Below are positions 1-48,797 of a stretch of 64,000 bases of DNA, piece after piece. Under the pieces are notes generated by a model. That model did no database searches and was not told the DNA's origin. It saw only the letters and a program-made list of their open reading frames with translations. The DNA is taken from contig OY762463.1 in assembly GCA_963665815.1 (NCBI GenBank), forward strand, positions 1,824,001 to 1,888,000, written 5' to 3'. The DNA comes from Candidatus Cloacimonadales bacterium. GTDB lineage: Bacteria > Cloacimonadota > Cloacimonadia > Cloacimonadales > JAIOQZ01. The translations under genes were made by a program, and so were the position numbers. The first letter of the stretch is position 1. The number at the start of each line of letters is the position of its first letter.

Positions 1-1838
1 GATGAAGCAGGTATTCTATCAATTAATTTCCCTTCCGAATTCAGCTTTTTACTGAAATCAGATATCGTGGGATTACTCAACAGAAGGTCTATTGTTGCAG
101 CCGAATCTATGCCTGTATTTACAGCAGTAATGATCTGTGCAGCAATAATAGAGTTTCCGCCAAGGCTGTAGAAATTGTCTGTTATCCCAATTTTATCTTG
201 TTTCAGGTATTTCCCCCAGATTTCTGCAAGAGAAACCTGTGTATCATTTTCAGGTGGAACAAAATCTGTTCTTGCAATGTTCCAGTCTGGTTCAGGCAGT
301 GTTTTTTTATCAATTTTACCATTATCTGTCAGTTTGAATTCATCAAGAATAACATAGCTTGCAGGAAGCATATAAGATGGCAGTTCTTCAGCTATTGATT
401 TCTTCAAATCATCTAAGGAGAAATCGTCTGATGTCCTAATATAAGCAACTATAGCTTTTTCTCCAACAAGATCATTTTTTACAAGAACAACGCAATCCTT
501 TACTTTATTCTGCTTAAGAATTACCGACTGTATCTCACCAAGTTCTATACGATAACCTCGAATTTTTACTTGCGAATCGAGTCGTCCAATACAGTCAAAC
601 TCACCATTAGGAAGTACTTTACCTAAGTCTCCGGTTTTATAGAGTTTTTCTCCATAAGTACCCGGTAATGGATTAGAAATGTAAGCTTTTTCAGTCATTT
701 CAGGCTGATTGTAATAACCTCGCCCGACACAGTCTCCACCAATGTAAATCTCCCCTGTCTCTCCCTCGGAAAGAACATTATAGTCCTCGTCAAGGATATA
801 TATCTGAGTATTATCTACAGGAACACCAATTGTAGGACTGTAATCAACTTCACCTTCATGTTCGATTACTTTTTCTGAAGCAATTACGGTACATTCACTC
901 GGTCCGTAAAGATTCACTACATCAGGAGAAAAGTCCTTCGCAGGTCTTCTCGTTAATCTGTCTCCACCTACATAAAGGTATTTCAACTTTGATTCTGGAG
1001 CAACCGGACTCAGCATAAACATCTCTGCAACAGGTGTTGGCAGAAATGAAGCTTTTATATTATTCTTTTCGTAGTATTCATGCAGTTTCTCAGGATTAAG
1101 AATCAGGCTGGAATCAAGGATATGTAATGTTAAACCTGAACACAGAGCAGTCCAGAATTCCCAGACAGATGCATCGAAACCCACTCTTGCCGACTGTGTA
1201 ACATTTGTACCAGCCTCAAAAGGGAAACGCCTGATATGCCAGTTCACCAGATTAAGCAGATTTCGGTGTTCTATACATATTCCTTTAGGTAAACCTGTAG
1301 AGCCTGATGTAAATATCAAATAAGCCAGATTTTCTTTATTGGCTCTGTCTTCCGGTTTAGAATCTCTGCTATTGATTTTATTGAGATTTATCAATCTTCG
1401 ATCAGGATCCGGAATAGATTCCAGCATCTTATCATTTGTGATTATCACAGGTGTGTCAGTAATGTTAATTGTATGATTCAGCCTTTCAATGGGATACTCC
1501 GGATCAAGAGAAACATAAGCACAACCGGCTTTCACCACCCCAAGAACTGAAATAACGTAGTCTATTGAACGATCAATATATATACCTATTGGAGTATCAG
1601 GTTTTACAGAGGATTCCTGTATTTCTACAGCAAGATCATCTGCTTTTTTTTTCAGTGTACCATATGTAATACTTTGATTATTGTGAACTACAGCTGTGAG
1701 ATCAGAATTAGCTTCTGCAATTTTATCAAAGAGTCTGTAAATATTATCTGCGTCAGGATGATCAACTTTTGTCCTGTTCAGATCAAAGACTAATTTATTC
1801 CATTCTTTTGTGTCCAGCTCTGCATTTTTAAGTTTCAT
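1..1838 (-). CDS. Non-ribosomal peptide synthetase, N-terminal part (adenylation + peptidyl-carrier domain), runs off the window start
   Basis: Not in ORF track (no stop in window). Manual translation from ATG at 1838: MKLKNAELDTKEW...KAGCAYVSLDPEYP...YLIFTSGSTGLPKG (A3)...GFDASVWE (A4)...NLYGPSE (A5)...GEIYIGGDCVGRGY (A6)...YKTGDL (A7)...GRLDSQVKIRGYRIELGEI (A8)...LPSYMLP (A9)...NGKIDK (A10), then DNFYSLGGNSI (PCP phosphopantetheine Ser at ~150-152). Confidence 0.95.
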   Translation of the reverse strand, partial: MKLKNAELDTKEWNKLVFDLNRTKVDHPDADNIYRLFDKIAEANSDLTAVVHNNQSITYGTLKKKADDLAVEIQESSVKPDTPIGIYIDRSIDYVISVLGVVKAGCAYVSLDPEYPIERLNHTINITDTPVIITNDKMLESIPDPDRRLINLNKINSRDSKPEDRANKENLAYLIFTSGSTGLPKGICIEHRNLLNLVNWHIRRFPFEAGTNVTQSARVGFDASVWEFWTALCSGLTLHILDSSLILNPEKLHEYYEKNNIKASFLPTPVAEMFMLSPVAPESKLKYLYVGGDRLTRRPAKDFSPDVVNLYGPSECTVIASEKVIEHEGEVDYSPTIGVPVDNTQIYILDEDYNVLSEGETGEIYIGGDCVGRGYYNQPEMTEKAYISNPLPGTYGEKLYKTGDLGKVLPNGEFDCIGRLDSQVKIRGYRIELGEIQSVILKQNKVKDCVVLVKNDLVGEKAIVAYIRTSDDFSLDDLKKSIAEELPSYMLPASYVILDEFKLTDNGKIDKKTLPEPDWNIARTDFVPPENDTQVSLAEIWGKYLKQDKIGITDNFYSLGGNSIIAAQIITAVNTGIDSAATIDLLLSNPTISDFSKKLNSEGKLIDRIPAS

Positions 1839-1840
1839 GA

Positions 1841-2419
1841 TTACTCCGAATCCTGATGTTCAAACTCATTTTTAAGTATTGAAAACAGATAAACATCGAA
1901 AAACTCTCTTCTGGATTCATGATACCCAAAGTCTCTTAGTCTGCCTTCCTTAGTAAAGTTTAGCTTCTCAAGCAGTTTGAATGATGGCAGATTACCCGGG
2001 CGAACAAGAGCCTGTATACGATGAAGTCCCATATCCTCAAAACCAAAACGAATTACTTCTGAAAGAACTTCAGTCATGATGCCTTTATTCCAGAATTCAC
2101 GCTTCAGATCATAGCCAATTTCGGCAATGGAGTTTTTAACAAATTTCCCGAAAAGGCATGTTCCTATCATCCTGCCGGTTAACTTATCAGCAACAGCCCA
2201 TCTCAGATATTCCTGTTTAGAATACTGTTCATCGAAAAAGCGGATTATAATCTTTGCAATATCCGGAGTTCCCGGACCATCCCAGTCCAGAAACTGAATA
2301 ACTTCCGGAGAATTATATAACTCACTGAAATCTTCAGAATCTGTCTCATTTATCTTTCTTAAAACACATCTTTCAGTTTTAAGAATAGGAAAATTCATAA
2401 AAGCTTTTTGTACGCTCAA
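1841..2419 (-). CDS. GNAT family N-acetyltransferase (RimJ/RimL type)
   Basis: FPILKTERCVLR N-terminus, AEIGYDL..FWNKGIMTE acetyl-CoA motif, N.PS.KLLEKLNF..EG; TTG start with AGGAG RBS. Confidence 0.9.
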   Translation of the reverse strand: MSVQKAFMNFPILKTERCVLRKINETDSEDFSELYNSPEVIQFLDWDGPGTPDIAKIIIRFFDEQYSKQEYLRWAVADKLTGRMIGTCLFGKFVKNSIAEIGYDLKREFWNKGIMTEVLSEVIRFGFEDMGLHRIQALVRPGNLPSFKLLEKLNFTKEGRLRDFGYHESRREFFDVYLFSILKNEFEHQDSE

Positions 2420-2442
2420 GCCAAACTCCTGTTACATTGTTA

Positions 2443-3450
2443 CTAATACCCTGCAGGATTCTTTACCTGCCAGTTCCACATATCTACACACATTTTATCT
2501 ATACTGTATTTTGCTTTCCAATTCATTTTGTTTAACGCTTTTTCCGGATCTGCATAAGAAGTAGCAATATCTCCGGATCTTCTTTCGGTAACTTTGTAAG
2601 GAACTGCTTTTCCAGTAGCCTTTTCAAATTCCTTTATAATCTGTAAAACGGAGTAACCTGCACCTGTTCCAAGGTTGATAATTTCCAGTCCGCATTCTTT
2701 CTTAAGAAGATCTAATGCCGAAATATGTCCATCCACAAGATCAAGAATATGAATGTAGTCTCTGACTCCTGTTCCATCCGGTGTATCATAATCATCACCA
2801 AACACTGACAGCATTTCTCTTTTACCTATCAGCACCTGAACAATAAACGGGAACAGATTATTAGGTTTACCATTAGGATCTTCTCCAATTAATCCTGATT
2901 CATGTGCTCCAACCGGGTTAAAATATCTGAGCAATACGATATTCCAGTTATTCTCAGCTTTGTACAAATCCTGCATAATATGTTCTACCATAAGCTTAGA
3001 CTGTCCATAAGGATTTGTTGGTCCAAGGTCAGCTTTTTCTGTAAGCGGAATCTCACTTGGCTCACCGTAAACAGTTGCAGAAGAACTGAATATAATATTT
3101 CGTACGTCATTCTCATTCATTACTTCAAGTAGATTCAATGTACCGGTAACATTGTTTTCGTAGTACATCAATGGTTTTTCCACAGATTCCCCTACAGCCT
3201 TCAAGCCAGCAAAGTGAATTGTTCCGAAGATATCGTTTTCCTTGAATATCTTTCTGAGAATCTCCTTATCTCTAATATCGCCTTCGTAGAATTTAACATT
3301 CTTTCCGGTGATTTTCTTTATTCTATCAAACACAACAGGATTACTGTTACTATAGTTATCTATTACAACAGGTTCATAACCCTGATTTAACAATTCAACA
3401 CATGTATGACTTCCAATAAAACCGGCTCCCCCGGTCACTAATATTTTCAT
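2443..3450 (-). CDS. galE: UDP-glucose 4-epimerase
   Basis: GGAGFIGSH, HFAGLKAVGES, YGQSK, LRYFNPVGAHESG, DGTGVRDYIH. Confidence 0.97.
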   Translation of the reverse strand: MKILVTGGAGFIGSHTCVELLNQGYEPVVIDNYSNSNPVVFDRIKKITGKNVKFYEGDIRDKEILRKIFKENDIFGTIHFAGLKAVGESVEKPLMYYENNVTGTLNLLEVMNENDVRNIIFSSSATVYGEPSEIPLTEKADLGPTNPYGQSKLMVEHIMQDLYKAENNWNIVLLRYFNPVGAHESGLIGEDPNGKPNNLFPFIVQVLIGKREMLSVFGDDYDTPDGTGVRDYIHILDLVDGHISALDLLKKECGLEIINLGTGAGYSVLQIIKEFEKATGKAVPYKVTERRSGDIATSYADPEKALNKMNWKAKYSIDKMCVDMWNWQVKNPAGY

Positions 3451-3464
3451 TTATCCTCCATTTA

Positions 3465-4595
3465 TCAGCAGTATTTTCTCCAGATGTTAAGTGCTTTCTT
3501 TTTCATTGTTTTTAAGTTTCCTGAATTCAGAACCCTTAATACATGGCGATCCGGAGGCAGTAGCCCCAGTAAATAAGGCACAGCCAGAAACAATCGTTGT
3601 CTTGGGTGGTGCATTGCCCAGTGTGCACTTTTAATTCTTAGCTTATCAATAAGTCTGTTTTTAACAGTATTCTTGAGTAGTTTTACAATATTGAAACCAT
3701 ATTTTCGATCTCTTGCAATGCATTTTGTATATTCATCAAAATTCAACTCATTCTTACCGTAATATTCGGAAAAAACCTGTAAGTAAACACTTGAGAAAAT
3801 TTTAACAGTATTTTTATGGTATTCCTTCAGTTCCTCTCTTGTATCAAACAACAGAGAAGGTTTAAGTTTATATTCAATAGAAAGCAGATACTCCTTAATA
3901 AGCTCATACAAATCTATGTTAGGCACATACTCCAGCTTGCAGAATCTCTCTTTTCTTTCAGTGTATGAAAAGTGATAAATCTTTCTCATCATCATAAGAG
4001 CATCGCCGGCTGCCATAATTGCTTTTTTGCAGTTCCTTTCAACAAATTCTCTGTTATGTCTGTTCCATTCTCCATCAATATACTCTTCACAAAGCAGTAA
4101 TCCCATAGCTCTGTTAAGAAGCAGTTTTAATGCTTCGATCTGAGGCATCTGGAATCCGTAGTACTTTGGAATCTCCTGAAGAATATCATAACTATTGTAC
4201 ACATATATGTAACCATGCTGTAATTCATACCACATCAGATGGAATGGGATATCCGGTATTCTGCTTACAGGCAGGGGAGAACTGAAATCAACCTCAATTC
4301 CAATTTGCTCAGTTAACTTTTCTGATAGTGCACTCAATTTTTTTCTGAACTTCCTGAGCTTGCTACCGGACAGGTTTGATGTGAATATAAAGAAATCGTA
4401 ATCATTGAACAGCATTTCAGTCTTATCTTCAAACCAGACTCCCCCTTCTCCTCTACCGTATCCTCCGCCAAGTACTATGGCTTTTATATCTTTTTCTGAG
4501 AATGTCTCAAGTACAGCGTCTTTTACAATCTGTAAATCAGCTTCAACTTTAGCATCTATCTCAGAAGAACCATAAATTGTATATTTTGATTTCAT
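3465..4595 (-). CDS. Pol-beta superfamily nucleotidyltransferase-like protein
   Basis: IVLGGGYGRGEGG...NDYDF (hG[GS]..DxD) plus third acid in EVDF; helical C-terminal domain. Confidence 0.65.
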   Translation of the reverse strand: MKSKYTIYGSSEIDAKVEADLQIVKDAVLETFSEKDIKAIVLGGGYGRGEGGVWFEDKTEMLFNDYDFFIFTSNLSGSKLRKFRKKLSALSEKLTEQIGIEVDFSSPLPVSRIPDIPFHLMWYELQHGYIYVYNSYDILQEIPKYYGFQMPQIEALKLLLNRAMGLLLCEEYIDGEWNRHNREFVERNCKKAIMAAGDALMMMRKIYHFSYTERKERFCKLEYVPNIDLYELIKEYLLSIEYKLKPSLLFDTREELKEYHKNTVKIFSSVYLQVFSEYYGKNELNFDEYTKCIARDRKYGFNIVKLLKNTVKNRLIDKLRIKSAHWAMHHPRQRLFLAVPYLLGLLPPDRHVLRVLNSGNLKTMKKKALNIWRKYC

Positions 4596-4604
4596 AAGAC
4601 CGCC

Positions 4605-6008
4605 TTAATGCAATTTTATCTTTCCTGAAAGTCTGTTTTTCATAGCTTTCAATACAATAGAAATATCTGTTTTTAAGCTTTTATGGGTCAGGTAATACAT
4701 ATCATCCAGCATAACCTGATTTTCATCTCTTTCACTCGGGAAGATTTCCGAATACTGAAATACTCCCGGTCGGTAATCAGTCAACAAATCTGATGTATCT
4801 ACATCATTCTGTGCTTCCACCAGTCTACAGCCAACAAGATTGATCTTGCCTGTCAGTACATCAAAAAGCAAAGGATATTTATCAAGAAGAAATCTATAGA
4901 AAAGTTTTGATCCCGAAGTATGCTCCACAAAAACGGTTTTCAGGAATCTCTCTATAGAACCATCCGCTTTTGCATAGAATTTTGTACTTTTCTGCCTGAT
5001 AATTTTGGTATTTATCAGCATCCTAATTATTGCTTCCGGCATATACAATACTCCGATAAGTATTCCGGCTAAAACCTTATCAAAAAATCTCTGCATAAAG
5101 GTGTTAACCATATTCTCCTGTATACCTGAAATCAGAAAGGCATCAGATATTTTCATAGACTCACCTGAATCAGGATCAATTAGAACATCCTTATAAACAA
5201 TCTTGTTATCTATATCAAGTTCCGAGCCAATATATGAAAGATCATAAACAATACTGTTTTTAACATGAGCCCCATTATCAATAATAACATTATTCCCGAT
5301 AATTGCTTCCGGACCAACTTCCGTATCTGCTTTTAACTGAACATTATCACCAAGTATTATAGGCTTTTTCAAATCTGCAGATTTTGGATAAATTATATTC
5401 TTACCGAGAAATACAAATTCTTCGTTGTTATATCCGGGAAGAACATAGTTGCTGCTTTCTTCATGGAGAACATAAAAGTTCAAGTCGTAATACAGTTTAA
5501 TATTGCTGATCTCTGTTATTCTGATACTGTCGGATGATTCAGATCTAAAATTATCAAAACTACTTCTTAAATCTTCTTTTCTAATAAAGTATATTCCTGT
5601 ATCTCCATCAATCAATTTAGATGAATCTTTCATGTCAGCAATCAGATTTTTCGGGAAATTGTTCTTGTCATAATGCAGAAAACCATACCCGTTAAAAACC
5701 AGAATGTCAGCATCTTTACAAAATGAGTTATTTTTAAGAATTACTTTCTTGAGAGAATCACCCGGCTTAGCAATACTATAGCTTATGTTGACTCCCCATT
5801 TATCACCGGAACCAAAATAATACTCCATTTCTGTATTCTGATGGGATGAGACAAAACGAATTTCCTCAATTCCATTCAGAGAACAAAAATCGAGAAAGTA
5901 CTCAAAAACCGGTTTATTCGCAATTTTCAGAAGATACGGGTGTAAATTCTGAAAATATTTGTGCAGCCAGTCAGTCTGTTTAACGGCACTGTAAACAAGA
6001 GCTTTCAT
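4605..6008 (-). CDS. Degenerate NDP-sugar pyrophosphorylase + left-handed beta-helix + C-terminal degenerate sugar-transferase (Bac_transf-like) domain
   Basis: LLKIANKPVFEY, YFGSGDKWGVNISY, hexapeptide repeats (IILGDNVQL, AIIGNNVII); C-term DVLTGKINLVG..RPGVF..DMYYL..SLKTDISIVLK; GGxGTR signature absent. Confidence 0.75.
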   Translation of the reverse strand: MKALVYSAVKQTDWLHKYFQNLHPYLLKIANKPVFEYFLDFCSLNGIEEIRFVSSHQNTEMEYYFGSGDKWGVNISYSIAKPGDSLKKVILKNNSFCKDADILVFNGYGFLHYDKNNFPKNLIADMKDSSKLIDGDTGIYFIRKEDLRSSFDNFRSESSDSIRITEISNIKLYYDLNFYVLHEESSNYVLPGYNNEEFVFLGKNIIYPKSADLKKPIILGDNVQLKADTEVGPEAIIGNNVIIDNGAHVKNSIVYDLSYIGSELDIDNKIVYKDVLIDPDSGESMKISDAFLISGIQENMVNTFMQRFFDKVLAGILIGVLYMPEAIIRMLINTKIIRQKSTKFYAKADGSIERFLKTVFVEHTSGSKLFYRFLLDKYPLLFDVLTGKINLVGCRLVEAQNDVDTSDLLTDYRPGVFQYSEIFPSERDENQVMLDDMYYLTHKSLKTDISIVLKAMKNRLSGKIKLH

Positions 6009-6019
6009 AATAGATTCCG

Positions 6020-6349
6020 TTAAAACGCTTCAAGAGCAGATTCTACATCATCAAATACATCAAATATTTTGTAAGCTCTGGTAATTTCGAATACCATACG
6101 AGGTTTAGCCTGTAATTTAGCTATGTATATATCCCCATTCAATTCAGAAACATATTTCAGGCAGGCTACAATCGCTCCAAGCCCTGTACTGTCAATAAAT
6201 TCAAGTTTACCAAGATCAAAAACAAAATTCCTGCTTTTACTCAGATAATCCTGAAAATGATCTTTCAGAACTTTCGAGTTAGATGCATCCAGTCTTCCCT
6301 CAAGACTTACGATGCCGGCACCCTTTCTTATTTCAAACGAGATATTCAT
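6020..6349 (-). CDS. STAS-domain anti-sigma-factor antagonist (SpoIIAA/RsbV/SypA-like)
   Basis: SLEGRLDA, DLGKLEFIDSTGLGAIV with the conserved phospho-acceptor Ser. Confidence 0.92.
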   Translation of the reverse strand: MNISFEIRKGAGIVSLEGRLDASNSKVLKDHFQDYLSKSRNFVFDLGKLEFIDSTGLGAIVACLKYVSELNGDIYIAKLQAKPRMVFEITRAYKIFDVFDDVESALEAF

Positions 6350-7314: not shown

Positions 7315-7324
7315 TTATGCTCCT

Positions 7325-8044
7325 TTAATATGCGCCCTTTCCTGTTATGACCGCAGGAATAGTATTGAGAAGAATTTTGAGATCTTCCCAGAGGCTCTGA
7401 CTCTTTATGTATTTTTTATCCAGTTCGACCTGTTGATCAAATGGAATTTCGCTTCTTCCGCTTACCTGCCAGATGCAGGTGATTCCAGGTTTAACATGAA
7501 GTCTTTTTCTGTCTTCAAGAGAATATTCGGCAACTTCTCTCGGGATTGGAGGTCTTGGACCAACAAGACTCATGTCACCAATAAACACATTGTACAATTG
7601 AGGTAACTCATCAATACTGAATCGTCTGATAACTCGACCGACTTTTGTAATTCTGGGATCCTTCTTCATCTTGAAGATGACACCTGCTTGAGATTCATTC
7701 TGATTAAGTAATTTGTCTTTAAACTTATCCGCATTCATTATCATAGACCTGAACTTATAAAAATCAAAGTGTTTACCATTGAGTCCAACTCTCTTCTGTG
7801 TGTAAAATACAGGACCCGGATCCTCTAGTTTTATCAAAATTGCAGTAATGAAGAATACCGGAGACAAAACAACCATTCCCAAAACTGACAGAACAACATC
7901 AATCAATCTCTTCAATCCATAAGAAAACTTGATTGTCAGTTCCCAGAGTATCAGTTTTCTGAGATGTCTTGTTTTTCTTTCTTCAATATTGCTGTCATCA
8001 AGCTGATTAATTATTTTCCGACGAAAATCTTTATCTACTGCCAT
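7325..8044 (-). CDS. Priming phosphoglycosyltransferase (sugar transferase, WcaJ/WbaP/PglC family)
   Basis: KRLID, KFRSM, DPRITKVGR, DELPQLYNVFIGDMSLVGPRP, KPGITCIWQVSGRS. Confidence 0.95.
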   Translation of the reverse strand: MAVDKDFRRKIINQLDDSNIEERKTRHLRKLILWELTIKFSYGLKRLIDVVLSVLGMVVLSPVFFITAILIKLEDPGPVFYTQKRVGLNGKHFDFYKFRSMIMNADKFKDKLLNQNESQAGVIFKMKKDPRITKVGRVIRRFSIDELPQLYNVFIGDMSLVGPRPPIPREVAEYSLEDRKRLHVKPGITCIWQVSGRSEIPFDQQVELDKKYIKSQSLWEDLKILLNTIPAVITGKGAY

Positions 8045-9371: not shown

Positions 9372-9383
9372 TCGTCAAACCTG

Positions 9384-10496: not shown

Positions 10497-11644
10497 GAAT
10501 CATCTCCCTGCAGAAGACTTTCAATTCTCTGCACATTTTCTGTGTTATCAAATTTTTTCTTGAAGAACTTCAGAGCTTTTTTACCCATAATCTTTGATTT
10601 ATCCGGAGCAAGTACAAGTTGATGTAAAAAACCGGCAAATGCCAGAAGATTACCTTCCTGAACAAGGAATCCATTCTCTTCATGATACAGCCACTCATCA
10701 ATGCCACCGATGTCAAATGCGATAACAGGTTTCCCATGTGAAAATGCTTCAGGTCCTATCATTCCGAATGGTTCCTGCCATCGTACCGGAACAACAACAG
10801 CGTCACATTTATTATAATAATCATTAACATTATCTACCCACCCGGTAAATGTAACATGCTCTTCAATACCGAATTTTCTTACAAGAAAATCCAGATATTC
10901 TCTGTCATTACCGTCTCCTGTAATAGTTAGATGGAATGGATATATCAGCATTGCTGCAATTTCCATAAGCTGATCTACCCCCTTACCTCTTATCAACTGC
11001 CCTACATAGAGAAGCTCTAGCTTATCATTCTTTTTATACTCAGGTTCAGGAGCTTTATCAATTATGGGATAGACTTTATGGATTTTCTGATCAGCAAATC
11101 CGTTTTCAATCAGATTCTTTCGCATATAATCCGAAAGCACAACGATTTTATCGCTTTTTTTCAGTGTCTGCATAAATGTCTCAAACTTATGAGGATTCAA
11201 GAACTTGACTGGAAAGCTTTGGCCTGTCTTCTGTATCAGACATGAACATAGCGAACAATATTGCTTATTGAATTTCCTGTTACAATTGATTCTTTTGTAG
11301 GGATAGTATTTGTGCTTTCTCATACAGTAGAAATCATGATCGTGTACAGTTAAAACCGTTCTGTAATTCTCCTGCATCATTTCTAGTAGATTCTGACTTG
11401 TTATCTTGTGAATATATGCAACATCAATATCACCAAACAATTCCTTTACTTGTTCAATTGTATGATTGTTATAGATATAACACTTCTCAAATATCTGCTC
11501 AAATTCCTTTTCATTGTCCGGCATTTTTTCAAAAAACCCGAACAATTTATGTCCCTGCTCCTTCAAAAGAAGCCCGACTTTGTATATATACTTTTCAACT
11601 CCGCCTTTAAAGCCAAAATGCGTATTCACAATTAAAATATTCAT
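10493..11644 (-). CDS. Glycosyltransferase family 4 with Cys-rich insert
   Basis: GGVEKY, TVHDHDFYC...C...CSLC, YVGQLIRGKG, EPFGMIGPEAFSHGKPVI. Confidence 0.92.
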   Translation of the reverse strand: MNILIVNTHFGFKGGVEKYIYKVGLLLKEQGHKLFGFFEKMPDNEKEFEQIFEKCYIYNNHTIEQVKELFGDIDVAYIHKITSQNLLEMMQENYRTVLTVHDHDFYCMRKHKYYPYKRINCNRKFNKQYCSLCSCLIQKTGQSFPVKFLNPHKFETFMQTLKKSDKIVVLSDYMRKNLIENGFADQKIHKVYPIIDKAPEPEYKKNDKLELLYVGQLIRGKGVDQLMEIAAMLIYPFHLTITGDGNDREYLDFLVRKFGIEEHVTFTGWVDNVNDYYNKCDAVVVPVRWQEPFGMIGPEAFSHGKPVIAFDIGGIDEWLYHEENGFLVQEGNLLAFAGFLHQLVLAPDKSKIMGKKALKFFKKKFDNTENVQRIESLLQGDDS

Positions 11645-11934
11645 AATCTTTTTTCTCTACAGTTTACACTGTCATCAATGCTGATAATCAGTGCGTTGTT
11701 AATATTCTGCTGTTTCATTGTAATCAACAGTTCCGTATCATGGATAGGACATGCCCTGATCTTATTATATATTAAAACAATCAGTTCATCATCAACTGAA
11801 AAACACAATGAGTTATTTATTGGTCTCAGTTCCCTGATTCCATTTTCACAAATCCCTGAAAAGCAATCAATCCTGAGCTCTTCAGTATTTGTGCTCGAAA
11901 TTACATTGAGAATCTTTTTCTTATACTTTTCCAT
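11641..11934 (-). CDS. Hypothetical protein (97 aa)
   Basis: ORF fills the gap in the operon exactly (6-bp gap upstream, ATGA overlap downstream); no recognised motif. Confidence 0.7.
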   Translation of the reverse strand: MEKYKKKILNVISSTNTEELRIDCFSGICENGIRELRPINNSLCFSVDDELIVLIYNKIRACPIHDTELLITMKQQNINNALIISIDDSVNCREKRL

Positions 11935-11940
11935 GAAATT

Positions 11941-14280
11941 TTACTTCATCATTACTTTTTCATAAACATCTTCATATAAACCAATTAAATATTTATATGT
12001 ATATTTCTGTCTCACAAGCTTTTCACCTTCTGCTGCAAGGGCAGAGAGTTTATCTCTGTCAGTATATGCTTTGAGCATTTTCTCCGAACACATTTCAACA
12101 TTCTCAGAATCAAAAAGATATCCGTTTTTACCTTCAACAACAAGGTTGGGATCAACGACATTGCTTTGAATAACCGGAGTTCCACTAATCCAGCTTTCAA
12201 CAACAACAGCACCCGAATTCATGAACCTGACAGGAATAACATGAACATCTGAATACCTGAGCCAGCTCAACACTTCCCAGCGATCAACCATTCCGGTGAA
12301 AATCACGCGTTCATCCAGATTATGCTCACCGACAAGCCTTTTCATCTCTTCAAAAAGTTGAGGTTCATAGTCTGCTCTTCCTACGAAAACATACATTGAA
12401 TCCGGAATCTCGTTCGCAATTTTTATAAAGGCTTTAAGTCCTATCATCTGTCCCTTGATCTCTGATACCCGTCCCAGAGAAAGGAAGACAAATTTATCAT
12501 CATTAATTTTTTTAATCTTTCTTATGTTATCTACTTCAACCTCATATTCATTCAAAAGAATAGGTACAGGCGAATAAGACACATTTGGATTAAACTGTTT
12601 GAAAAATCTGATTTCTTTATCTGCAATTGCGAATATGTGATCATACCCGTGCAGAAACATTTTTTCTCTGTGTTTTATATTATAAGAGCTCAAAACATCC
12701 GGATTAATTTTACCTGTTTCTTTTATTATACCTGCATAATCAAGAAAATCGAAAGAACAGAGAATTACTGGCATATTGAACAGCTTTCCTATGATAAATG
12801 CCAGCATATTGTTATAGCTTATTGCCGGGAAGCACTGGATTACATCATAACGTTCATTAATCAGATGCCAGATGATTGTCGGGCAAAGAGTTTTTGTTTT
12901 GATATTTGGCAATTTCACAAACGGATTGAACAGATCATATAACCTTTTTACAATAAATCCGTTTTCAATCTCAGTCTTTTCTCTGTCTATTCTATGAGGA
13001 CAGATTACTGTTACTTCGTTATTCTTTGCCAGTTCTATTGCCTGATAGTGGATATTTGTTTCAGCTCCGCCGACTTCCGGATAAAATCTGTTTGTCAGTA
13101 TTGCTATTTTTTTTCTTGTTTTTACGGTTTTCAAAAACTCAATAAAAGATTTTCCTACATTATCTGAAAAATAGAGCTTCATCGTTTTTGCATAAAGTCT
13201 TTGTCCAATCTCAGAAAGCTTCTCCGGTTCTGCATGAAGCCTTTTAATTTCTTCACACATTTTCTCTGCAGAATCCCGAATTACTACTTCAGACTCATCA
13301 AGTTCCAGCCCTTCAATACCAATTGTAGTCGTTAAAACTGCTTTTTTCAGCATACCGGCTTCAAGAATTCGTGTTCTTGTTCCGGAAGCAACCCGTAATG
13401 GCAAAAGCACTGATAATGCATTATGAATCTCTGACTCAATATCATCAACTTCACCAATAATATCAATATTATCATAGTCCTTATAATCGGAATAAAGTTT
13501 TGATTCCTCTTTACCAACAATCCTGATCCGTATATCATTTTCAATCAGCCATTCCTTCAGGGCAGGATACATGTTATTCACAAAATTCATAAAAGCATCT
13601 TCATTAGCGGCAGAACTCAATGTACCAAAGAACAAGATGTATTTTTCATTATTCAAAGAAAATGTATCTCTGTCAACACGGCCAATTGCATTTGGCAGAA
13701 TTTGATAATGCAGTTCAGGACGTTTCGCATAGTCCAAAACCATATCTCTTTCAACCGAATTAGAAAAAAAGAAATAATATGGTCTTGAGAAGAATTTCTT
13801 CTCGAAAGCTTTTAACTTAAGATACTCTATGAAGAAATATCTGTTTTTAAGAGTTTTACATTTATTCCATGAAAGCTCAGCAATTCTTGAAAAAAGCATG
13901 TCCACATCAATGATGATTTTTGAGTTTGGAGATATATATTCAGCTATCCTTGCCAGCTTTGCCATTGAGCTGAATCGAAATACAATCAGATCGTATTTAC
14001 TGGATTGCAGTATGCGCTTCCATTTTCGAATCTGCTCATTAGTAAATTTATATACCGCTGTAGTTTCCCATAAGTTCGTATCCATTTGTGTACCCATGGA
14101 ATAACAGTTTTCATAGCCGCTATGTTTATGTACTTTAGAGAAAATGTATCTCCATGATCTGACGAGAAACAAATCACAGTCATATTCCTTATTGAGAGTA
14201 TTCCATAAGAATCTGCTACGGTTTTTATCTCCACCTTTTTCATTGGCAAACGGAGTATCTACATAAAGCACTTTCTTCAT
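11941..14280 (-). CDS. Two-domain (tandem) family 4 glycosyltransferase
   Basis: First GT-B: PLRVASGTRTRILEAG..TTIGIEG; second: YPEVGGAE, LGRVSEIKG, SGAVVVESWISGTPVI. Confidence 0.9.
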   Translation of the reverse strand: MKKVLYVDTPFANEKGGDKNRSRFLWNTLNKEYDCDLFLVRSWRYIFSKVHKHSGYENCYSMGTQMDTNLWETTAVYKFTNEQIRKWKRILQSSKYDLIVFRFSSMAKLARIAEYISPNSKIIIDVDMLFSRIAELSWNKCKTLKNRYFFIEYLKLKAFEKKFFSRPYYFFFSNSVERDMVLDYAKRPELHYQILPNAIGRVDRDTFSLNNEKYILFFGTLSSAANEDAFMNFVNNMYPALKEWLIENDIRIRIVGKEESKLYSDYKDYDNIDIIGEVDDIESEIHNALSVLLPLRVASGTRTRILEAGMLKKAVLTTTIGIEGLELDESEVVIRDSAEKMCEEIKRLHAEPEKLSEIGQRLYAKTMKLYFSDNVGKSFIEFLKTVKTRKKIAILTNRFYPEVGGAETNIHYQAIELAKNNEVTVICPHRIDREKTEIENGFIVKRLYDLFNPFVKLPNIKTKTLCPTIIWHLINERYDVIQCFPAISYNNMLAFIIGKLFNMPVILCSFDFLDYAGIIKETGKINPDVLSSYNIKHREKMFLHGYDHIFAIADKEIRFFKQFNPNVSYSPVPILLNEYEVEVDNIRKIKKINDDKFVFLSLGRVSEIKGQMIGLKAFIKIANEIPDSMYVFVGRADYEPQLFEEMKRLVGEHNLDERVIFTGMVDRWEVLSWLRYSDVHVIPVRFMNSGAVVVESWISGTPVIQSNVVDPNLVVEGKNGYLFDSENVEMCSEKMLKAYTDRDKLSALAAEGEKLVRQKYTYKYLIGLYEDVYEKVMMK

Positions 14281-15122
14281 CGCTTAATTCCTTTGGAATA
14301 ATCACTTATACCTCTATTCACAGCATATTTCTGAACGAGTCTGTAAATAAAAGACTGACATATTAAATGATATTCATTTCGTTTTGCAATCCAGATAACA
14401 TCTCTCAAAAACTCCATAATGAATGGTTTCAGGAAAAATCTGATCAAAGACGGTTTGAATCCATATATTTTACCTTCTGCCACACCTTCCCCATGGAATC
14501 TTTTATATACCTGTGGAATAGTGTAATTATGAGAATGTTCTACAATTGCTTCCGGGACATACACAAGAGTATATCCTTTGTTTTTCATTCTGTAAGACCA
14601 CTCTATATCTTCGGAGTACTGTATGTCAGGATCAAAGGGATGTTCCTGAATCATAGATTTTTTGACTGCACTGGTTGCAAGTGAAAAGAAATGATGCCAG
14701 TTCTTAGATTCTCTTCCGTCTCCAAATGCTCTCACCATGTCTTTTATCACAAGAGAATGAGCGTCAGGTCTATAAATCTGATTTCCGAATACAGCCGCAA
14801 CTTTTGCATTTAAAAGAGGCTTTATAAGGTTTTTCAACCAGTTTCTGTCCTGCGGAATGCAATCAGAATTGTTAAACACAATAATATCACCATTCGCTCT
14901 GGCAACAGCTTCATTTAATACTCTGCCCGGAATATAGTCTGACGATTTTATCTGATATGCATTATCTGCATTATACTTCCGAATTACTTCCCAGGTACCA
15001 TCTCTGGATCCTGAATCAACATTGAGAATCTCAAACTCATCATAATCCTGTTCCAGCAGCATTTTCATTGTTGTTTCAATATATTCAATATCGTTAAACG
15101 ATCTTACAATAATTGTTACCAT
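14277..15122 (-). CDS. Glycosyltransferase family 2 (rhamnosyltransferase-like)
   Basis: IIVRSFN, VDSGSRDGT, NNSDC, SEDIEW, VEHSHNY. Confidence 0.9.
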   Translation of the reverse strand: MVTIIVRSFNDIEYIETTMKMLLEQDYDEFEILNVDSGSRDGTWEVIRKYNADNAYQIKSSDYIPGRVLNEAVARANGDIIVFNNSDCIPQDRNWLKNLIKPLLNAKVAAVFGNQIYRPDAHSLVIKDMVRAFGDGRESKNWHHFFSLATSAVKKSMIQEHPFDPDIQYSEDIEWSYRMKNKGYTLVYVPEAIVEHSHNYTIPQVYKRFHGEGVAEGKIYGFKPSLIRFFLKPFIMEFLRDVIWIAKRNEYHLICQSFIYRLVQKYAVNRGISDYSKGIKR

Positions 15123-15124
15123 GT

Positions 15125-17050
15125 TTATTCCTTATTGAGCGAAAGCCTGAACCGAGTACAATTCAGGTTATCTATCCTGTTTCGAACCGCATCCTGAGCA
15201 AGTTCTTTTATCATAGAAATACCCCGTCCCCTCTCGTTAAGGACAAGTAGTTCATCAAGGTTTTTAATTAAATCTTCCTTATTTTCCTCTTTAGTTTCAC
15301 TAAAGTTAAGTACCCATTCCTTACCTTCATCAATAAATGTAAGCTCCAGAAACTCTCCGAATGATAGTATTACGAATATATATGCATCTTTTCTGGAATC
15401 AAGTCCATGGACAATGATGTTATTCAGAAATTCATTAACAATCAGCTCAACTTTATAGCCAAGCCATGTATTACCTGTCCATTTCTTGACGAGGAATTCA
15501 CAGTTTCTACCGATCTTTCCAACCTCGGAAAGCATTGATTGAATACAATACAGATGGTTATTCTGTAACTTTTTAATACTTAGCTTTTTATCATCCTGTA
15601 TGTGAGTACACATATTCACAAATATAAAATTCTTACCTGTGTTCCTATATCCCTCGAGATTCATTATTCTCTCGAAATTATCAGGGAACAGATTTATATA
15701 AGAAAAATTATGATAGTACTTCTGAAGAATTAATGAGAACTTTTCCATATTGAGTTCTTCATCATTTCTTTCCAGTGAAAAAACACCTTCAGTAAACAAA
15801 AAAATCATTGTATTTATTTTCAGTTCTACAGTATGTTCCGTAATTTCCTCTATATTTGTAACAGACTTAATGTAATCTATTCTGTTTTCATGATTATCAT
15901 AAATAATCATATCAGGTGAATTTAATGATGCTGTTTTAACTGTTTTGGCTTTCATGTCAAAAACAGCTAACATCACTTTCAAATTAGCATGAGTTCTAAG
16001 GTTTATTTTAAGATTATGCTCAAGTTTACTGAAGACAAGCCTGAGAATCTCATCCACAGGCATATGCTCCAACTCTCTGGAAAGCTTGAATATCACTGAT
16101 TTAACCGCAGAAGCATACAATACAGACTTTGCTCCGGTATGCGAAATATCTACAATAAAATACATATACTTATCATCACTAATCTGAATCATATCTGAAA
16201 TTGAACCGAGACTATCCATGAAGTATGGAAAATACGTTGACACAACTAAATCTTCATATTGCTCAACGCCTTTGGTGATAATTGCAGACTGAATCTGACT
16301 TGTCGCCTGGGACTGCTCAAGCATAATATCGAGATAGCTCTGAAGTTTTGATTCAGATTTCTTACGTTCAGTAACATCCCTAAGTTTCCACAAAAATGCT
16401 GTTGTTTTCCCGGCATCTTCAATTGGAATAAATTCGCGTTCTACTATCAAAGCATCACTCAATGTGATTTCACTGACAGAGGTTCCATTCCCCTGATCAT
16501 TGATGTTTGAAAACATTTCGTAAAATGAATCTATATTATGAAATGCTCTGGACAGCTCATAAATCAAATTAAGAGTTGACAGACCAAAATAGGAGGTTGC
16601 TTCCTGTTTTAAATCAAGCATTCTCACGAATTTCTCATTGATGAACAGTATCTTACGCTCAGAGTCCTCTAACAATACACCCTCTTCAAGATGAGAAAGA
16701 ACAAGCGATAAATCTGCAGTTATACCTGAAGTTCTGCTGTTTTCTTCATGTCTTGTTCCGGTTATCTGCACAATCAGTTCATCATTATAAAGGGGAATAA
16801 CATTTAAGTTAAAATTTCTTGAGTGGGAAGTCCAATCTATCTGCTGTACCTGCTTTTGTGCTTCTGCCCGAAACAGCAGTTCCCGTATTTCACTTTGAAA
16901 CTGATTACTTAATGCAGTTCTATTTGAGTTAAGAACATCATCTATCATGAATTGATATTCAGATGTTCCATGCATTGACAGCACTTCTCTCTTCAATCCG
17001 ACATGAATAAAAAGAGACTCTTTAACTACGCTTTTTCCTTTATTATTCAA
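15125..17050 (-). CDS. PAS + degenerate PP2C/SpoIIE-like domain + RsbW/SpoIIAB-type HATPase serine kinase
   Basis: PAS (EEGVLLED..INEKF, RDVTERK); PP2C-like IVDISHTG, LFTEGV; kinase N/G1/G2 boxes ELIVNEFLNNIIVHG, DEGKEW, ERGRGISMI. Confidence 0.85.
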   Translation of the reverse strand: MNNKGKSVVKESLFIHVGLKREVLSMHGTSEYQFMIDDVLNSNRTALSNQFQSEIRELLFRAEAQKQVQQIDWTSHSRNFNLNVIPLYNDELIVQITGTRHEENSRTSGITADLSLVLSHLEEGVLLEDSERKILFINEKFVRMLDLKQEATSYFGLSTLNLIYELSRAFHNIDSFYEMFSNINDQGNGTSVSEITLSDALIVEREFIPIEDAGKTTAFLWKLRDVTERKKSESKLQSYLDIMLEQSQATSQIQSAIITKGVEQYEDLVVSTYFPYFMDSLGSISDMIQISDDKYMYFIVDISHTGAKSVLYASAVKSVIFKLSRELEHMPVDEILRLVFSKLEHNLKINLRTHANLKVMLAVFDMKAKTVKTASLNSPDMIIYDNHENRIDYIKSVTNIEEITEHTVELKINTMIFLFTEGVFSLERNDEELNMEKFSLILQKYYHNFSYINLFPDNFERIMNLEGYRNTGKNFIFVNMCTHIQDDKKLSIKKLQNNHLYCIQSMLSEVGKIGRNCEFLVKKWTGNTWLGYKVELIVNEFLNNIIVHGLDSRKDAYIFVILSFGEFLELTFIDEGKEWVLNFSETKEENKEDLIKNLDELLVLNERGRGISMIKELAQDAVRNRIDNLNCTRFRLSLNKE

Positions 17051-17058
17051 CGTATCTC

Positions 17059-18267
17059 CTAGAAAAATTCTTTTACCCAGAACGGTTCTCTCACACCTAT
17101 TCCTTGTTTAAACGATTTCAGTAGTTCTATCATTGTGAATGTAACATCCTGATCTTTAGGAATTATTGTAATTCCATTCTTAGCTTTTACATCTTCGTCA
17201 ATCATCATATATATATGCAAATCCTGGACATTAATCTGTTTTCTTCTGAACTTTGATCTCTGAACAGGAATATCTTTCAGTATTTCCAACAGCATCGGAT
17301 TATATTCTTTATACAAACTTTTCATATATTGAATTGCATCTGAAGGAAACTTGCCGCTCTTCAGCTGAATCTCGAAATCCAGAGAAACCTTCAGCATTTG
17401 AGCCCCCAGAGATATTGGAGTCTGCTTGTAATTATCCATTTCAGTGTATTCCCTGAATGATTTTAGCTGTCCTCCTATCATATATGCTATTGACTGCATA
17501 CCCGGTATTTTTGCAAGAAGTCTTCTCGCAATTTTAGGGTGCCTGTCAAATACATCACTTTCATCTTCAGAAAGAGATTCCCCTGATGAAACCTTTATCA
17601 GTAAATCCTGAGGAATAGCAATTGTACCTATCTGGCTGAGAGTTGCAGCAAGAATAAATTCCCATTTATTATCCGGACTGATCCTGTCAGCAATAAACTC
17701 GACATAACGACGTATACTTGATGATCGTGAAAAAGCAATTGAATTGGAATAGCTCAGAACTTCAGATAAGATCGAAACTGACGCATTAGTTGTTTTTTCC
17801 TTAAGTTCCATCTGTTGTCTTGCTTCAAGTGTTCTTTTATTTACTTCTTTTTCCAGATCAGAGTTAATTCTACGCAACTCATCACGAGCAAGTTTCAATT
17901 CAAGGTGATTCTTTACTCTTGCTTTAAGTTCCTCTTTATTGAACGGTTTTGAAACATAATCTTTAGCCCCCAGAGATAATCCGTGTACAATACTCTCTTT
18001 ATCCGACTTTGCTGTCAGGAAAATCACAGGAATATCTTTGGTTTGAGGACTGTTCTGAAGTCTGTTGCAAACATCAAAGCCATTCATTTCGGGCATCATT
18101 ACATCCAGAAGAATCAGGTCATAATCATTTTCTTTGCCCCATTTAACAGCTTCTTTGCCTTTTGTGGTATACGAAATATCATAATTCTCTGTTCTCAGAA
18201 TACTCCCCAGTAATTGTATGTTCTTAGGGGCATCATCAACAATAAGAACCTTCGGCTTATAACTCAT
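17059..18267 (-). CDS. Response regulator (REC + HD-GYP-like domain, HD motif degenerate)
   Basis: VLIVDD, DLILLDVMMP, FLTA, KPF; ATLSQIGTIAIP in place of HDIGK, HPKIA. Confidence 0.88.
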   Translation of the reverse strand: MSYKPKVLIVDDAPKNIQLLGSILRTENYDISYTTKGKEAVKWGKENDYDLILLDVMMPEMNGFDVCNRLQNSPQTKDIPVIFLTAKSDKESIVHGLSLGAKDYVSKPFNKEELKARVKNHLELKLARDELRRINSDLEKEVNKRTLEARQQMELKEKTTNASVSILSEVLSYSNSIAFSRSSSIRRYVEFIADRISPDNKWEFILAATLSQIGTIAIPQDLLIKVSSGESLSEDESDVFDRHPKIARRLLAKIPGMQSIAYMIGGQLKSFREYTEMDNYKQTPISLGAQMLKVSLDFEIQLKSGKFPSDAIQYMKSLYKEYNPMLLEILKDIPVQRSKFRRKQINVQDLHIYMMIDEDVKAKNGITIIPKDQDVTFTMIELLKSFKQGIGVREPFWVKEFF

Positions 18268-18349
18268 TTTTGCTCCGTATACTTAGCATGATAAATTCAA
18301 AAGTAAGCTTTGATTATTTCGCACGTAAAATTCAGTAAATTCCGAGTAA

Positions 18350-18365
18350 TGCAAAATTCTTACCA
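18350..18365 (-). promoter_or_regulatory. Putative sigma-54 (-24/-12) promoter for the 18267->1 operon
   Basis: Minus strand TGGTAAGAATTTTGCA = GG-N10-GC, in the only sizeable intergenic gap, ~83 bp upstream of ATG 18267. Confidence 0.6.
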
Positions 18366-18373
18366 TGTTAATA

Positions 18374-21266: not shown

Positions 21267-21314
21267 ACTTTCTCTCGCCAATTGATAATTTCATCGTAAA
21301 TATACACTATTACC

Positions 21315-26623: not shown

Positions 26624-26627
26624 ATTT

Positions 26628-34353: not shown

Positions 34354-34360
34354 CAATACC

Positions 34361-48709: not shown

Positions 48710-48797
48710 GCAGAAGTGGTGGAATTGGCAGACACGCAAGACTAAGGATCTTGTGCCCAATGCGGGTGTGCGGGTTCGAGTCCCGCCTTCTGCACCA
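48710..48797 (+). tRNA. tRNA-Leu, anticodon AAG (48744-48746)
   Basis: Acceptor GCAGAAG/CTTCTGC-ACCA; anticodon stem CAAGA/TCTTG with loop CT-AAG-GA; long variable arm; GCGGG-TTCGAGT-CCCGC T arm. Confidence 0.95.

Follow-up and report, generated by a model that had tools for sequence, protein, structure and literature searches.

In the mycobacterial glycopeptidolipid loci, an NRPS and glycosyltransferases are encoded together, the product is a glycosylated peptide, and soluble GT1-type enzymes act on the lipopeptide. An NRPS gene also adjoins glycosyltransferase genes in the 64,000-nucleotide stretch of Candidatus Cloacimonadales DNA analyzed here (the window). Unlike in the mycobacterial loci, the sugar genes are of the polyprenyl-phosphate polymer type (PGT, GT26) and the NRPS lacks a lipid-loading starter C domain.

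Control of the syp polysaccharide of Vibrio fischeri by SypA (STAS) and SypE (kinase/phosphatase) is described as acting below the level of transcription in PMC4517449, and the two regulators are also treated in PMC10120452. Like syp, the window locus encodes many glycosyltransferases, a Bac_transf priming enzyme, a single-domain STAS protein of its own, and an enzyme combining a serine kinase with a phosphatase. However, its switch enzyme is a PAS-PP2C-kinase that lacks a receiver; the receiver belongs instead to another protein, one whose HD-GYP domain is degenerate. In addition, the part in the window has no Wzx, Wzy, or Wza-type genes, and an NRPS follows in the gene chain. Anabaena All4160 (STAS-Bac_transf) is reported to be controlled by phosphorylation, and the preprint on All4160, Synechocystis XssP, and the HenR phosphatase describes a phosphorylatable STAS serine that directly controls an exopolysaccharide priming enzyme (10.64898/2026.04.08.717354). 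The window locus likewise combines a STAS serine (DSTG) with a Bac_transf priming enzyme, but its STAS domain and PGT are not fused: each is a protein of its own, the PGT a small one, and two more proteins carry degenerate PGT halves.

Sixteen minus-strand ORFs run from 18267 to position 3. According to the ORF list of the window, all 15 of their junctions overlap or span at most 23 bp, in agreement with the initial annotation. From the NRPS end they measure 2, 23, 14, 9, 11, -4, 10, -14, 12, -4, -4, 6, -4, 2, and 8 bp, and the first junction upstream of the tight unit is 106 bp (18268-18373). Gene content and spacing were established directly. The unit is taken as real because a run of 15 tight junctions has a probability of about 1e-3 at the window's own rate. 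Positions 1-18267 of the minus strand are thus one tightly packed 16-gene unit, which is probably co-transcribed. The earlier view of an operon-like block holds. The 2-bp gap between the GNAT and NRPS genes is too short for a promoter. Of the 24 same-strand junctions elsewhere in the window, 15 are also at most 23 bp, an approximate count based on ORFs of at least 120 aa. Any single tight junction, including that between the GNAT and NRPS genes, is therefore unremarkable, and adjacency is weak evidence of shared chemistry. Unrelated genes are packed as closely in the same window (rnc-fabF, 18 bp; mazG-recG, 9 bp; a PTPS gene tightly spaced within an RND efflux operon), so spacing is no proof of a common program. 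The NRPS piece has a GC content of 0.376 and a GC3 of 0.276, inside the range of the remaining genes, and therefore gives no sign of recent insertion.

The 106-bp gap (18268..18373, minus strand) is the sole candidate for a promoter region immediately upstream of the unit. The best sigma-70-like match is TTGACA-17-TAATAT at 18399-18371, though matches overall are at chance level and the sigma-70 consensus used in the scan may not apply to the host phylum. A TAnnTTTG-like word, which we take to be a promoter consensus, is present at 18305-18298.

Based on its gene content, the approximately 16 kb upstream of the GNAT and NRPS genes is a predicted lipid-carrier-primed glycan pathway, incomplete as read in the window. 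All its genes are on the minus strand. The initial annotation had listed a PGT, GT26, GT2, four GT4 domains, two epimerases, an NTase, and a GNAT in the unit, and this inventory was borne out by Pfam and NCBIfam and, for the NTase, by AlphaFold and Foldseek. Besides these genes the unit encodes the STAS protein, a PAS-SpoIIE/PP2C-HATPase_c_2 fusion, a REC-HD_5 protein, and an NTP_transferase-LbH protein.

The small polyprenyl-phosphate phosphoglycosyl transferase (priming PGT; 7325..8044) matches the full Bac_transf model (233 bits) and TIGR03025 (299.8 bits, cut-off 295.55), and has the IDELPQL and LVGPRPP motifs. Next to it, the 8031..9371 protein fuses a hydrophobic segment and a degenerate PGT half to a GT26 domain (WecG/TagA/CpsF; Glyco_tran_WecG, 214.8 bits). 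The half covers only positions 87-177 of Bac_transf and, aligned with the full PGT, shows NK at the DE position and lacks PRP. A second degenerate half forms the C-terminus of the 4605..6008 protein, after an NTP_transferase-like N-domain (27.5 bits), a left-handed beta-helix (LbH), and one hydrophobic segment (314-332). It covers only positions 78-176 in Pfam, with DK for DE and PRP absent from the alignment. UDP-glucose 4-epimerase (GalE) is encoded at 2443..3450 (TIGR01179, 451.7 bits, cut-off 262.3). The SDR sugar-nucleotide epimerase/dehydratase at 6346..7314 matches Pfam Epimerase (207 bits), and its scores against NCBIfam equivalogs are all below cut-off. Two GT4 glycosyltransferases (9384-10496 and 10493-11644; Glycos_transf_1, 109.6 and 113.5 bits) and the two GT4-type halves of a 779-aa protein (11941..14280; Glyco_trans_1_4 in two stretches, the stp1 model over 79-362 and other GT4 models over 391-777) make up the four GT4 domains. 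A GT2 glycosyltransferase follows at 14277..15122 (Glycos_transf_2, 74 bits). A 97-aa ORF (11641..11934) belongs to no known family, with no Pfam or NCBIfam match at E <= 0.001 and nothing meaningful at E <= 1. Proteins of the unit have at most one hydrophobic segment each, and no flippase, polymerase, or exporter of the Wzx, Wzy, or Wza type was found in the window part of the glycan locus. The genes from 18267 to 2443 would assemble a glycan on polyprenyl phosphate as the carrier, with the small PGT priming, the GT26, GT2, and four GT4 domains extending, and GalE and the second SDR supplying sugar nucleotides.

The STAS protein (6020..6349) is of the single-domain, anti-sigma-antagonist type (Pfam STAS, 64.3 bits; TIGR00377, 63.9 bits, cut-off 53.45). 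Its gene and the SDR gene share 4 bp, and Ser54 is in a DSTG context. The putative switch enzyme for it is the Pfam-assigned fusion of PAS, a SpoIIE/PP2C phosphatase, and an RsbW-type kinase at 15125..17050 (SpoIIE, 34.6 bits, cut-off 25; HATPase_c_2, 29.9 bits, cut-off 27.4; PAS_7 below cut-off). The first gene of the tight unit codes for a response regulator whose HD-GYP-type domain is degenerate (17059..18267; Response_reg, 114.9 bits; HD_5, 82.1 bits), and neither an HD nor a GYP motif occurs anywhere in its sequence. Glycan output is probably gated post-transcriptionally by this partner switch. The fusion would set the phosphorylation of Ser54, and the target of the STAS protein would in turn be the priming step, which is flanked by the two catalytically degenerate PGT-like membrane modules. 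Outside the tight unit, on the same strand, Pfam identifies a REC-PAS-degenerate GGDEF protein, which has no GG[DE]EF motif, and a histidine kinase (18374..21281). These are possible upstream regulators.

The NRPS gene (3..1838, minus strand) begins with an initiation module, A-PCP, as assigned by Pfam, NCBIfam, and orthologues. Its first 612 codons reach the window edge without a stop. Pfam places AMP-binding at 37-376 (234 bits), AMP-binding_C at 435-508, and PP-binding at 537-597, with the PCP serine within LGGNS. The A domain scores 377 bits against TIGR01733 (cut-off 317), and the best match among solved structures is LgrA (675 bits). No NCBIfam equivalog reached its cut-off. Equivalents of what we take to be Asp235 and Lys517 are kept in the A1 pocket, and A1 therefore activates an alpha-amino acid.

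The initial annotation had proposed that A-PCP activates one amino acid for transfer to the glycan, in the manner of DltA/DltC with teichoic acids. The window part alone is indeed A-PCP, an A and a carrier domain beside envelope-polymer genes as in DltA/DltC, and the A domain does match DltA models, but the scores of 322 and 301 bits are below the curated cut-offs of 476 and 560. Moreover, the PCP is fused rather than free-standing, Pfam finds no MBOAT, DltB, or DltD-type gene in the window, and the ORF stays open past the PCP, where orthologues run on into active C domains, two more modules, and a TE. We consider such decoration highly improbable, the orthologue architecture A-T-C-A-T-T-T-C-A-T-TE largely ruling it out.

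Two orthologues are colinear with the window NRPS from a shared MKLKNAELD start. P0122 is 82% identical to the NRPS piece across 612 of 612 residues, has the order A-T-C-A, and ends at its own contig end. It is the sole close relative among the 120 matches listed in a search of proteins of 1072-3060 aa. The second orthologue came from searching a variable 54-aa NRPS stretch against 1.84 billion representatives. Three matches were found at E <= 0.001, among them P0366 (3125 aa), aligned at the corresponding residues 119-172. P0366 shares 79% identity with the NRPS piece over all 612 residues, and its identity with P0122 is 78.7% across 1477 residues. The architecture of the orthologues and the motif states were established directly. 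Both continue past A-PCP into an intact condensation domain with HHxxxDG, a motif retained in both C domains of P0366. The Pfam and BLAST domain map of full-length P0366 gives the 11-domain order above, and its last module spans the whole EntF model (4-1286 of 1292). Judged from its domains, the orthologue would assemble a tripeptide by itself and release it through a domain of its own. It has the A, PCP, C, and TE core motifs of ordinary TE-terminated NRPSs (EntF-type termination, LgrA-type A domains). It differs from them in that module 2 is followed by three carrier domains in tandem and the TE nucleophile elbow has Cys in place of Ser (GWCFGG). A further difference is that the window gene closes a glycan operon. 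Only the first module was read in the window, the remainder being taken from orthologues at 79-82% identity. The window NRPS would be a three-module TE-terminated line of about 3125 aa, with about 7.5 kb of it left of the window, and its product would be a tripeptide of a hydrophobic residue, a second residue, and probably Gly. The initial annotation had itself set a multi-module line with its own cluster against its interpretation, and the first half of this, a multi-module line, is what the orthologues encode. Overall, that interpretation is partly supported.

The Cys-type TE of P0366 may indicate unusual release chemistry, as described for the Cys-nucleophile TEs of ObiF1 (PMC6668435) and SulM (PMC11298585). 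It could be invoked for a peptide-glycan conjugate, in which a hydroxyl or amino group on the glycan, either lipid-linked or already finished, receives the tripeptide, possibly N-acetylated, from the terminal TE. Such chemistry would yield an envelope or biofilm polysaccharide decorated with peptide, a glycopeptide, or a glycolipopeptide. The NRPS does end an unbroken 16-gene chain, translationally coupled to the GNAT gene, and the unit also encodes a putative NTase-fold protein, P0242. The lack of a flippase, polymerase, and exporter among the glycan genes seen suggests that the locus may extend past the NRPS. If the missing genes do lie there, the NRPS is embedded in the glycan locus and a chemical link is favored. 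However, no gene or domain for joining peptide to sugar was found, MBOAT and DltD-like proteins being absent from the window and P0366 having no extra C-type domain. A TE-terminated line requires no acceptor, closely spaced genes are usual in this genome, and a literature search gave no precedent. Among the matches listed, NRPS relatives fall from 79-82% directly to at most 41% identity, and the orthogroup appears limited to a narrow lineage. P0242, in contrast, has 199 homologues in a graded family across several phyla, suggesting lineage-specific addition of the NRPS. A peptide-decorated glycan is without support here, and we regard the conjugate as improbable.

The GNAT N-acetyltransferase (1841..2419, minus strand) is of the RimJ/RimL type (Pfam Acetyltransf_3, 99.5 bits). 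It reaches only 26.8 bits against the PseH sugar N-acetyltransferase model (cut-off 93). Its sequence matches in the PDB are RimJ/L-type GNATs, PA3944, and, weakly, bleomycin acetyltransferase. As this type includes acetylators of peptide antibiotics, the GNAT may belong with the NRPS, and the two could be a separate small cluster with its own internal promoter, sharing neither regulation nor function with the glycan operon. The narrow lineage of the NRPS orthogroup and the equally tight unrelated genes elsewhere in the window are consistent with this. However, the GNAT stop (TAA, 1843-1841) is followed after 2 bases by the NRPS ATG at 1838, as the initial annotation had noted and as sequence and Pfam confirm, and the galE-GNAT gap is 23 bp. 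Ribosome-binding sites at both junctions are within the upstream coding ends, that of the NRPS being a GGAG in the last GNAT codons a few bases before the ATG. No minus-strand sigma-70-like match falls in 1841-3450 among the best 60 of 88, of which the closest (1468-1441) is within the NRPS gene. No terminator-like hairpin was found at the GNAT-NRPS junction; overall, such sites are about as frequent as chance predicts (10 observed, 8.7 +/- 3.7 expected). Mere neighborhood of this kind therefore seems unlikely, if less so than a conjugate. We favor, with some reserve, a co-transcribed unit in which a glycan pathway with a STAS switch and a three-module NRPS peptide are co-expressed and their products are not joined. 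A small peptide would then be made alongside a matrix or envelope glycan, and the GNAT may N-acetylate its free amino terminus.

P0242 (3465..4595, minus strand; 376 aa) has a nucleotidyltransferase fold with an aminoglycoside-NTase-like architecture in its predicted structure (AF2 model, pLDDT 94.8). No Pfam or NCBIfam family scored above threshold, NTP_transf_2 being sub-threshold at 14.9 bits. The homologue alignment has invariant G44 G45 ... N64 D65 and a near-invariant D67. The best Foldseek matches in the PDB are ANT(4'), AAD(9), and AadA, at E 1.6e-4 and weaker and TM 0.33-0.40 on the query. P0242 shares with them an N-terminal pol-beta nucleotidyltransferase fold, a helical C-terminal domain, and the conserved G-G ... 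D-x-D signature, but it is only 9-15% identical to them, has these low TM values, and is about 120 residues longer.

The minus-strand ORFs from position 18267 down to position 3 number 16 in the ORF listing. The 15 junctions between them measure 2, 23, 14, 9, 11, -4, 10, -14, 12, -4, -4, 6, -4, 2 and 8 bp, and the next junction upstream of the unit is 106 bp. These values bear out the chain described in the initial annotation, in which genes overlap or lie at most 23 bp apart, including the close approach of its last two members. The GNAT gene (1841..2419, minus strand) ends in a TAA at 1843-1841, 2 bp ahead of the NRPS ATG at 1838, with a GGAG within the last GNAT codons, and from that ATG the NRPS ORF has no stop up to the window edge. 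Pfam and NCBIfam also recovered the claimed gene content: an adenylation (A) domain with a PCP, a RimJ/L-type GNAT, GalE, a second SDR, a small PGT, GT26, GT2, and four GT4-type domains in three proteins. Further genes of the unit, to which the annotation gave no emphasis, encode a STAS protein, a fusion of PAS, PP2C and RsbW-type kinase domains, a receiver and HD-GYP-type protein, and an NTP_transferase-LbH protein.

A run of 15 such junctions has a chance of about 1e-3, so the unit is taken to be real. Its last junction is less informative. Outside the unit, 15 of the 24 same-strand junctions in the window are also 23 bp or shorter (an approximate count, using only ORFs of at least 120 aa), and some link genes that are plainly unrelated: rnc-fabF, a PTPS gene within an RND efflux operon, and mazG-recG. 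The single GNAT-NRPS junction therefore tells little about shared chemistry. GNAT and NRPS could be mere neighbours of the glycan operon with a separate promoter, which we consider unlikely though worth keeping in view; the genes are physically continuous with the operon. A window scan gave chance numbers of both sigma-70 promoter-like sites (88 versus 74.9 +/- 9.3 expected) and terminator-like sites (10 versus 8.7 +/- 3.7 expected) and is uninformative on this point. In an Rfam search covering the full window, the one match is a tRNA at 48710-48794, and the neighbourhood of the operon is free of riboswitch matches. The 106-bp gap contains a TAnnTTTG-like word (TACTTTTG) at 18305-18298 (minus strand), placed 31 nt ahead of the start codon at 18267, which appears similar to the -7 promoter element of Bacteroidota. 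Within the unit, a 97-aa ORF without a family (11641-11934, minus strand) is squeezed in among the GT4 genes, overlapping its neighbour by 4 bp on one side and leaving a gap of 6 bp on the other.

The NRPS part encoded in the window, 612 codons (3..1838, minus strand), begins with an adenylation domain that scores 376.6 bits with TIGR01733 (cut-off 317.4) and has the FDxS, YGPxE and NGK motifs. Motif anchoring places in it an alpha-amino-acid pocket with equivalents of Asp235 and Lys517. The carrier domain that follows has the GGNS serine and scores 35.4 bits with PP-binding (cut-off 20.8). We searched for relatives by length class. Among proteins of 336-1071 aa, the top identity was 41% in the best 120 of 7115 matches; among those of 1072-3060 aa, one of the 120 matches listed is close. 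This orthologue, P0122, is 82% identical over all 612 residues and is encoded on an 8682-bp contig as A-PCP-C-A, truncated at the contig end. The window ORF stops in the PCP-C linker, exactly where P0122 enters its condensation (C) domain. No full-length relative below 3060 aa was among the matches listed. Longer relatives were sought in a representative library of 1.84 billion proteins, queried with 54 residues from a variable part of the A domain so that many-module NRPSs would not fill the list. Three proteins matched at E <= 0.001, with the 3125-aa P0366 matching at the same residues, 119-172. This second orthologue has the same N-terminus as the window protein, with 79% identity across 612 of 612 residues, and shares 78.7% identity with P0122 in an alignment of 1477 residues.

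The Pfam and BLAST domain map of P0366 runs A1 (37-508), T (531-600), C (614-1058), A2 (1087-1560), three T domains in tandem after the second module (1589-1809), C (1834-2275), A3 (2297-2765), T (2793-2858) and TE (from 2884; Pfam Thioesterase 2884-2986, 65 bits). The condensation motif HHxxxDG is kept in both orthologues, as HHIITDG in P0122 and in the first C domain of P0366 and as HHIILDG in the second C domain of P0366. The last module aligns over the entire EntF model, which together with the domain map indicates a complete line of three modules with its own release domain. By motif anchoring, the pocket residues are DAWFYGLVIK for A1, DLENIGTIIK for A2 and DILQLGMVWK for A3; read by hand, they suggest that A1 is Leu-like or hydrophobic and A3 Gly-type. 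The nucleophile elbow of the TE (near residue 2950) is GWCFGG, in which Cys takes the place of the usual Ser of GxSxG. Cys-type TEs are reported for ObiF1 (PMC6668435) and SulM (PMC11298585).

This architecture bears on the main idea of the initial annotation, that the A-PCP pair transfers a single amino acid to the glycan in the manner of the Dlt system. The glycan operon is there and runs without a break into the NRPS gene, but a Dlt-like decoration is disfavoured. DltA models score below their cut-offs on the window protein (NF003417, 322.4 versus 476; TIGR01734, 301.4 versus 559.85). The A domain is not of the free-standing DltA type, as it is fused to its carrier and, in the orthologues, the protein continues through active C domains. 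Neither an MBOAT (DltB) nor a DltD partner was found by Pfam or NCBIfam among the 18 proteins of 1-21281, and no MBOAT or DltD-like gene was seen within the window. Taken together, these results make Dlt-like aminoacylation of the glycan highly improbable. A tripeptide line ending in a TE requires no glycan acceptor.

The adjoining GNAT fits the NRPS at least as a candidate partner. Solved relatives of this RimJ/L-type protein include enzymes that acetylate peptide amines, namely PA3944 and, weakly, the bleomycin acetyltransferase, and the model for the sugar N-acetyltransferase PseH reaches only 26.8 bits (cut-off 93). By type and by this low score, the GNAT may belong with the NRPS. The N-terminus of a peptide stays free when the initiation module has no starter C domain, and the GNAT may cap it. 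We favour, with somewhat better than even confidence, a glycan operon gated by a partner switch and co-expressed with a GNAT and a complete NRPS of three modules, whose product would be a small tripeptide, possibly N-acetylated. If the two are merely co-expressed, the product is one more small non-ribosomal peptide made alongside a matrix polymer, notable mainly for its source in a little-studied uncultured lineage, probably Cloacimonadota.

Among the glycan genes, that for the small PGT (7325..8044, minus strand) encodes a complete enzyme, which scores 299.8 bits with TIGR03025, just over the cut-off of 295.55, and keeps the DE and PRP motifs. It adjoins GT26, GT2 and the four GT4 domains, and GalE and an SDR are also present; by its gene content, such a set is the signature of a repeat unit that would be built on polyprenyl phosphate. 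No Pfam family of flippase, polymerase or export proteins occurs in the window part of the locus, and the unit encodes no multi-pass membrane protein, with at most one hydrophobic segment in each of its proteins. Genes for these functions could sit beyond the window. A peptide-glycan conjugate is quite unlikely in our estimate. In its most specific form, which we hold to be very unlikely, the NRPS would itself belong to the glycan pathway: the Cys-type TE would move the N-acetylated tripeptide to the lipid-linked repeat unit or to the finished polymer, giving a non-ribosomally peptidylated exopolysaccharide whose synthesis a STAS partner switch would gate, and the flippase, polymerase and export genes would follow just past the NRPS. 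It would take a peptide demonstrably attached to the glycan for the locus to represent a new kind of envelope chemistry.

In each of two proteins flanking the intact small PGT (4605-6008 and 8031-9371, both minus strand), a single hydrophobic segment precedes a Bac_transf (PGT) domain of which just the C-terminal half is present. The halves are joined to an NTP_transferase-LbH unit in one protein and to GT26 in the other; DE has become DK in the NTP_transferase-LbH protein and NK in the GT26 protein, and PRP is absent from both. We read these two, from their lost motifs, as putative non-catalytic PGT-like membrane modules, which may serve as scaffolds or as regulatory targets.

The favoured reading includes control by a partner switch, for which the unit encodes candidate components. 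The STAS protein (6020..6349, minus strand; Pfam STAS 64.3 bits) has Ser54 in a DSTG motif. The PAS-PP2C-kinase fusion (15125..17050, minus strand) unites what are probably its kinase, which scores 29.9 bits with HATPase_c_2 (cut-off 27.4), and its phosphatase, which scores 34.6 bits with SpoIIE (cut-off 25), both barely over the cut-off. A STAS protein and a fused putative kinase/phosphatase resemble SypA and SypE of the 18-gene syp locus, whose control is post-transcriptional (PMC4517449). The pair of a STAS protein with a phosphorylatable serine and a kinase/phosphatase also resembles All4160 of Anabaena, described in a preprint as a phosphorylation-controlled fusion of a STAS domain with a Bac_transf enzyme (10.64898/2026.04.08.717354). 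By analogy with these two systems, it is probably the priming step that the STAS protein of this locus gates. The locus would add a free-standing putative switch of STAS and PAS-PP2C-kinase proteins to the short list of polysaccharide loci with known or proposed post-transcriptional control, syp and All4160. The two degenerate PGT-like modules beside a real priming enzyme present themselves as candidates for the target of STAS proteins of this type. An active c-di-GMP circuit was also considered and dropped. The receiver-HD_5 protein (17059-18267, minus strand; HD_5 82 bits) lacks HD and GYP, and the receiver-PAS-GGDEF protein (18374-19690, minus strand; GGDEF 41 bits) lacks the GG[DE]EF motif. 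Both domains look catalytically dead and are best treated as degenerate signalling domains, so we make no claim of c-di-GMP turnover.

The 376-aa protein (3465..4595, minus strand) had been labelled a pol-beta NTase. It matches no family above threshold (Pfam NTP_transf_2 14.9, cut-off 21), and a PDB sequence search gave nothing meaningful (top match E 0.031); the label seems reasonable at the level of fold, as the best solved-structure matches of its model (pLDDT 94.8) are aminoglycoside nucleotidyltransferases. Nine structures matched at E <= 0.001 (top E 1.6e-4), with a TM of only 0.33-0.40 on the query. The architecture is like that of these enzymes, but the 376-aa protein has about 120 extra helical residues. 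A G-G ... N-D-x-D signature is invariant, the motif being kept in 64 aligned relatives. Homologues at E <= 0.001 number 199, and those named among the 120 listed come from Cloacimonadota/Cloacimonetes (3), Verrucomicrobiota (2), Latescibacterota (1) and Lentisphaeria (1). This unnamed 199-member family with an NTase fold appears tied to loci of this type.

Among the matches listed, identity in the 376-aa family falls gradually (90, 83, 42, 41 ... 24%), whereas that of the NRPS relatives drops from 79-82% directly to 41% or less. The difference suggests that a more widespread type of locus has perhaps acquired the NRPS as a tail in one lineage. The best mid-range NRPS matches, again among those listed, are from Cloacimonetes MAGs. 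Together with a GC of about 36%, the named homologues of the 376-aa protein and the C-terminal sorting domains described below, they point to a host in the FCB group, most likely one of the Cloacimonadota. A search of genome contigs with the A-PCP protein gave 17 loci, the top one 35% identical (Brevibacillus), but none with an orthologue. Because P0122, the orthologue with 82% identity, departs from every one of the six peptide patterns used, this search may have missed close relatives. When the 17 non-NRPS proteins of the unit and its neighbours were compared with those loci by tblastn, there were only three weak matches, all in one locus, L007 (26-29%). Searches of open-access full texts and bioRxiv gave no relevant precedent for an NRPS inside a polysaccharide cluster or for NRPSs of Cloacimonadota. 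Recent horizontal insertion of the NRPS was dropped as an explanation, its GC and GC3 being ordinary.

Elsewhere in the window, a PTPS/QueD-type (6-pyruvoyl-tetrahydropterin-synthase) gene (26246-26671, minus strand) lies in an RND efflux operon, between and overlapping the genes for the outer-membrane factor and the AcrB-type pump. Three consecutive proteins of 672, 438 and 511 aa (31055-35896, minus strand) start with hydrophobic segments and match no Pfam family at E <= 0.001; their genes follow fabF, rnc and a radical-SAM gene in a tight chain. Two PKD-repeat proteins (52304-57174, plus strand) end in Por_Secre_tail and FlgD_ig sorting domains, which indicates that the host has a type IX secretion system.
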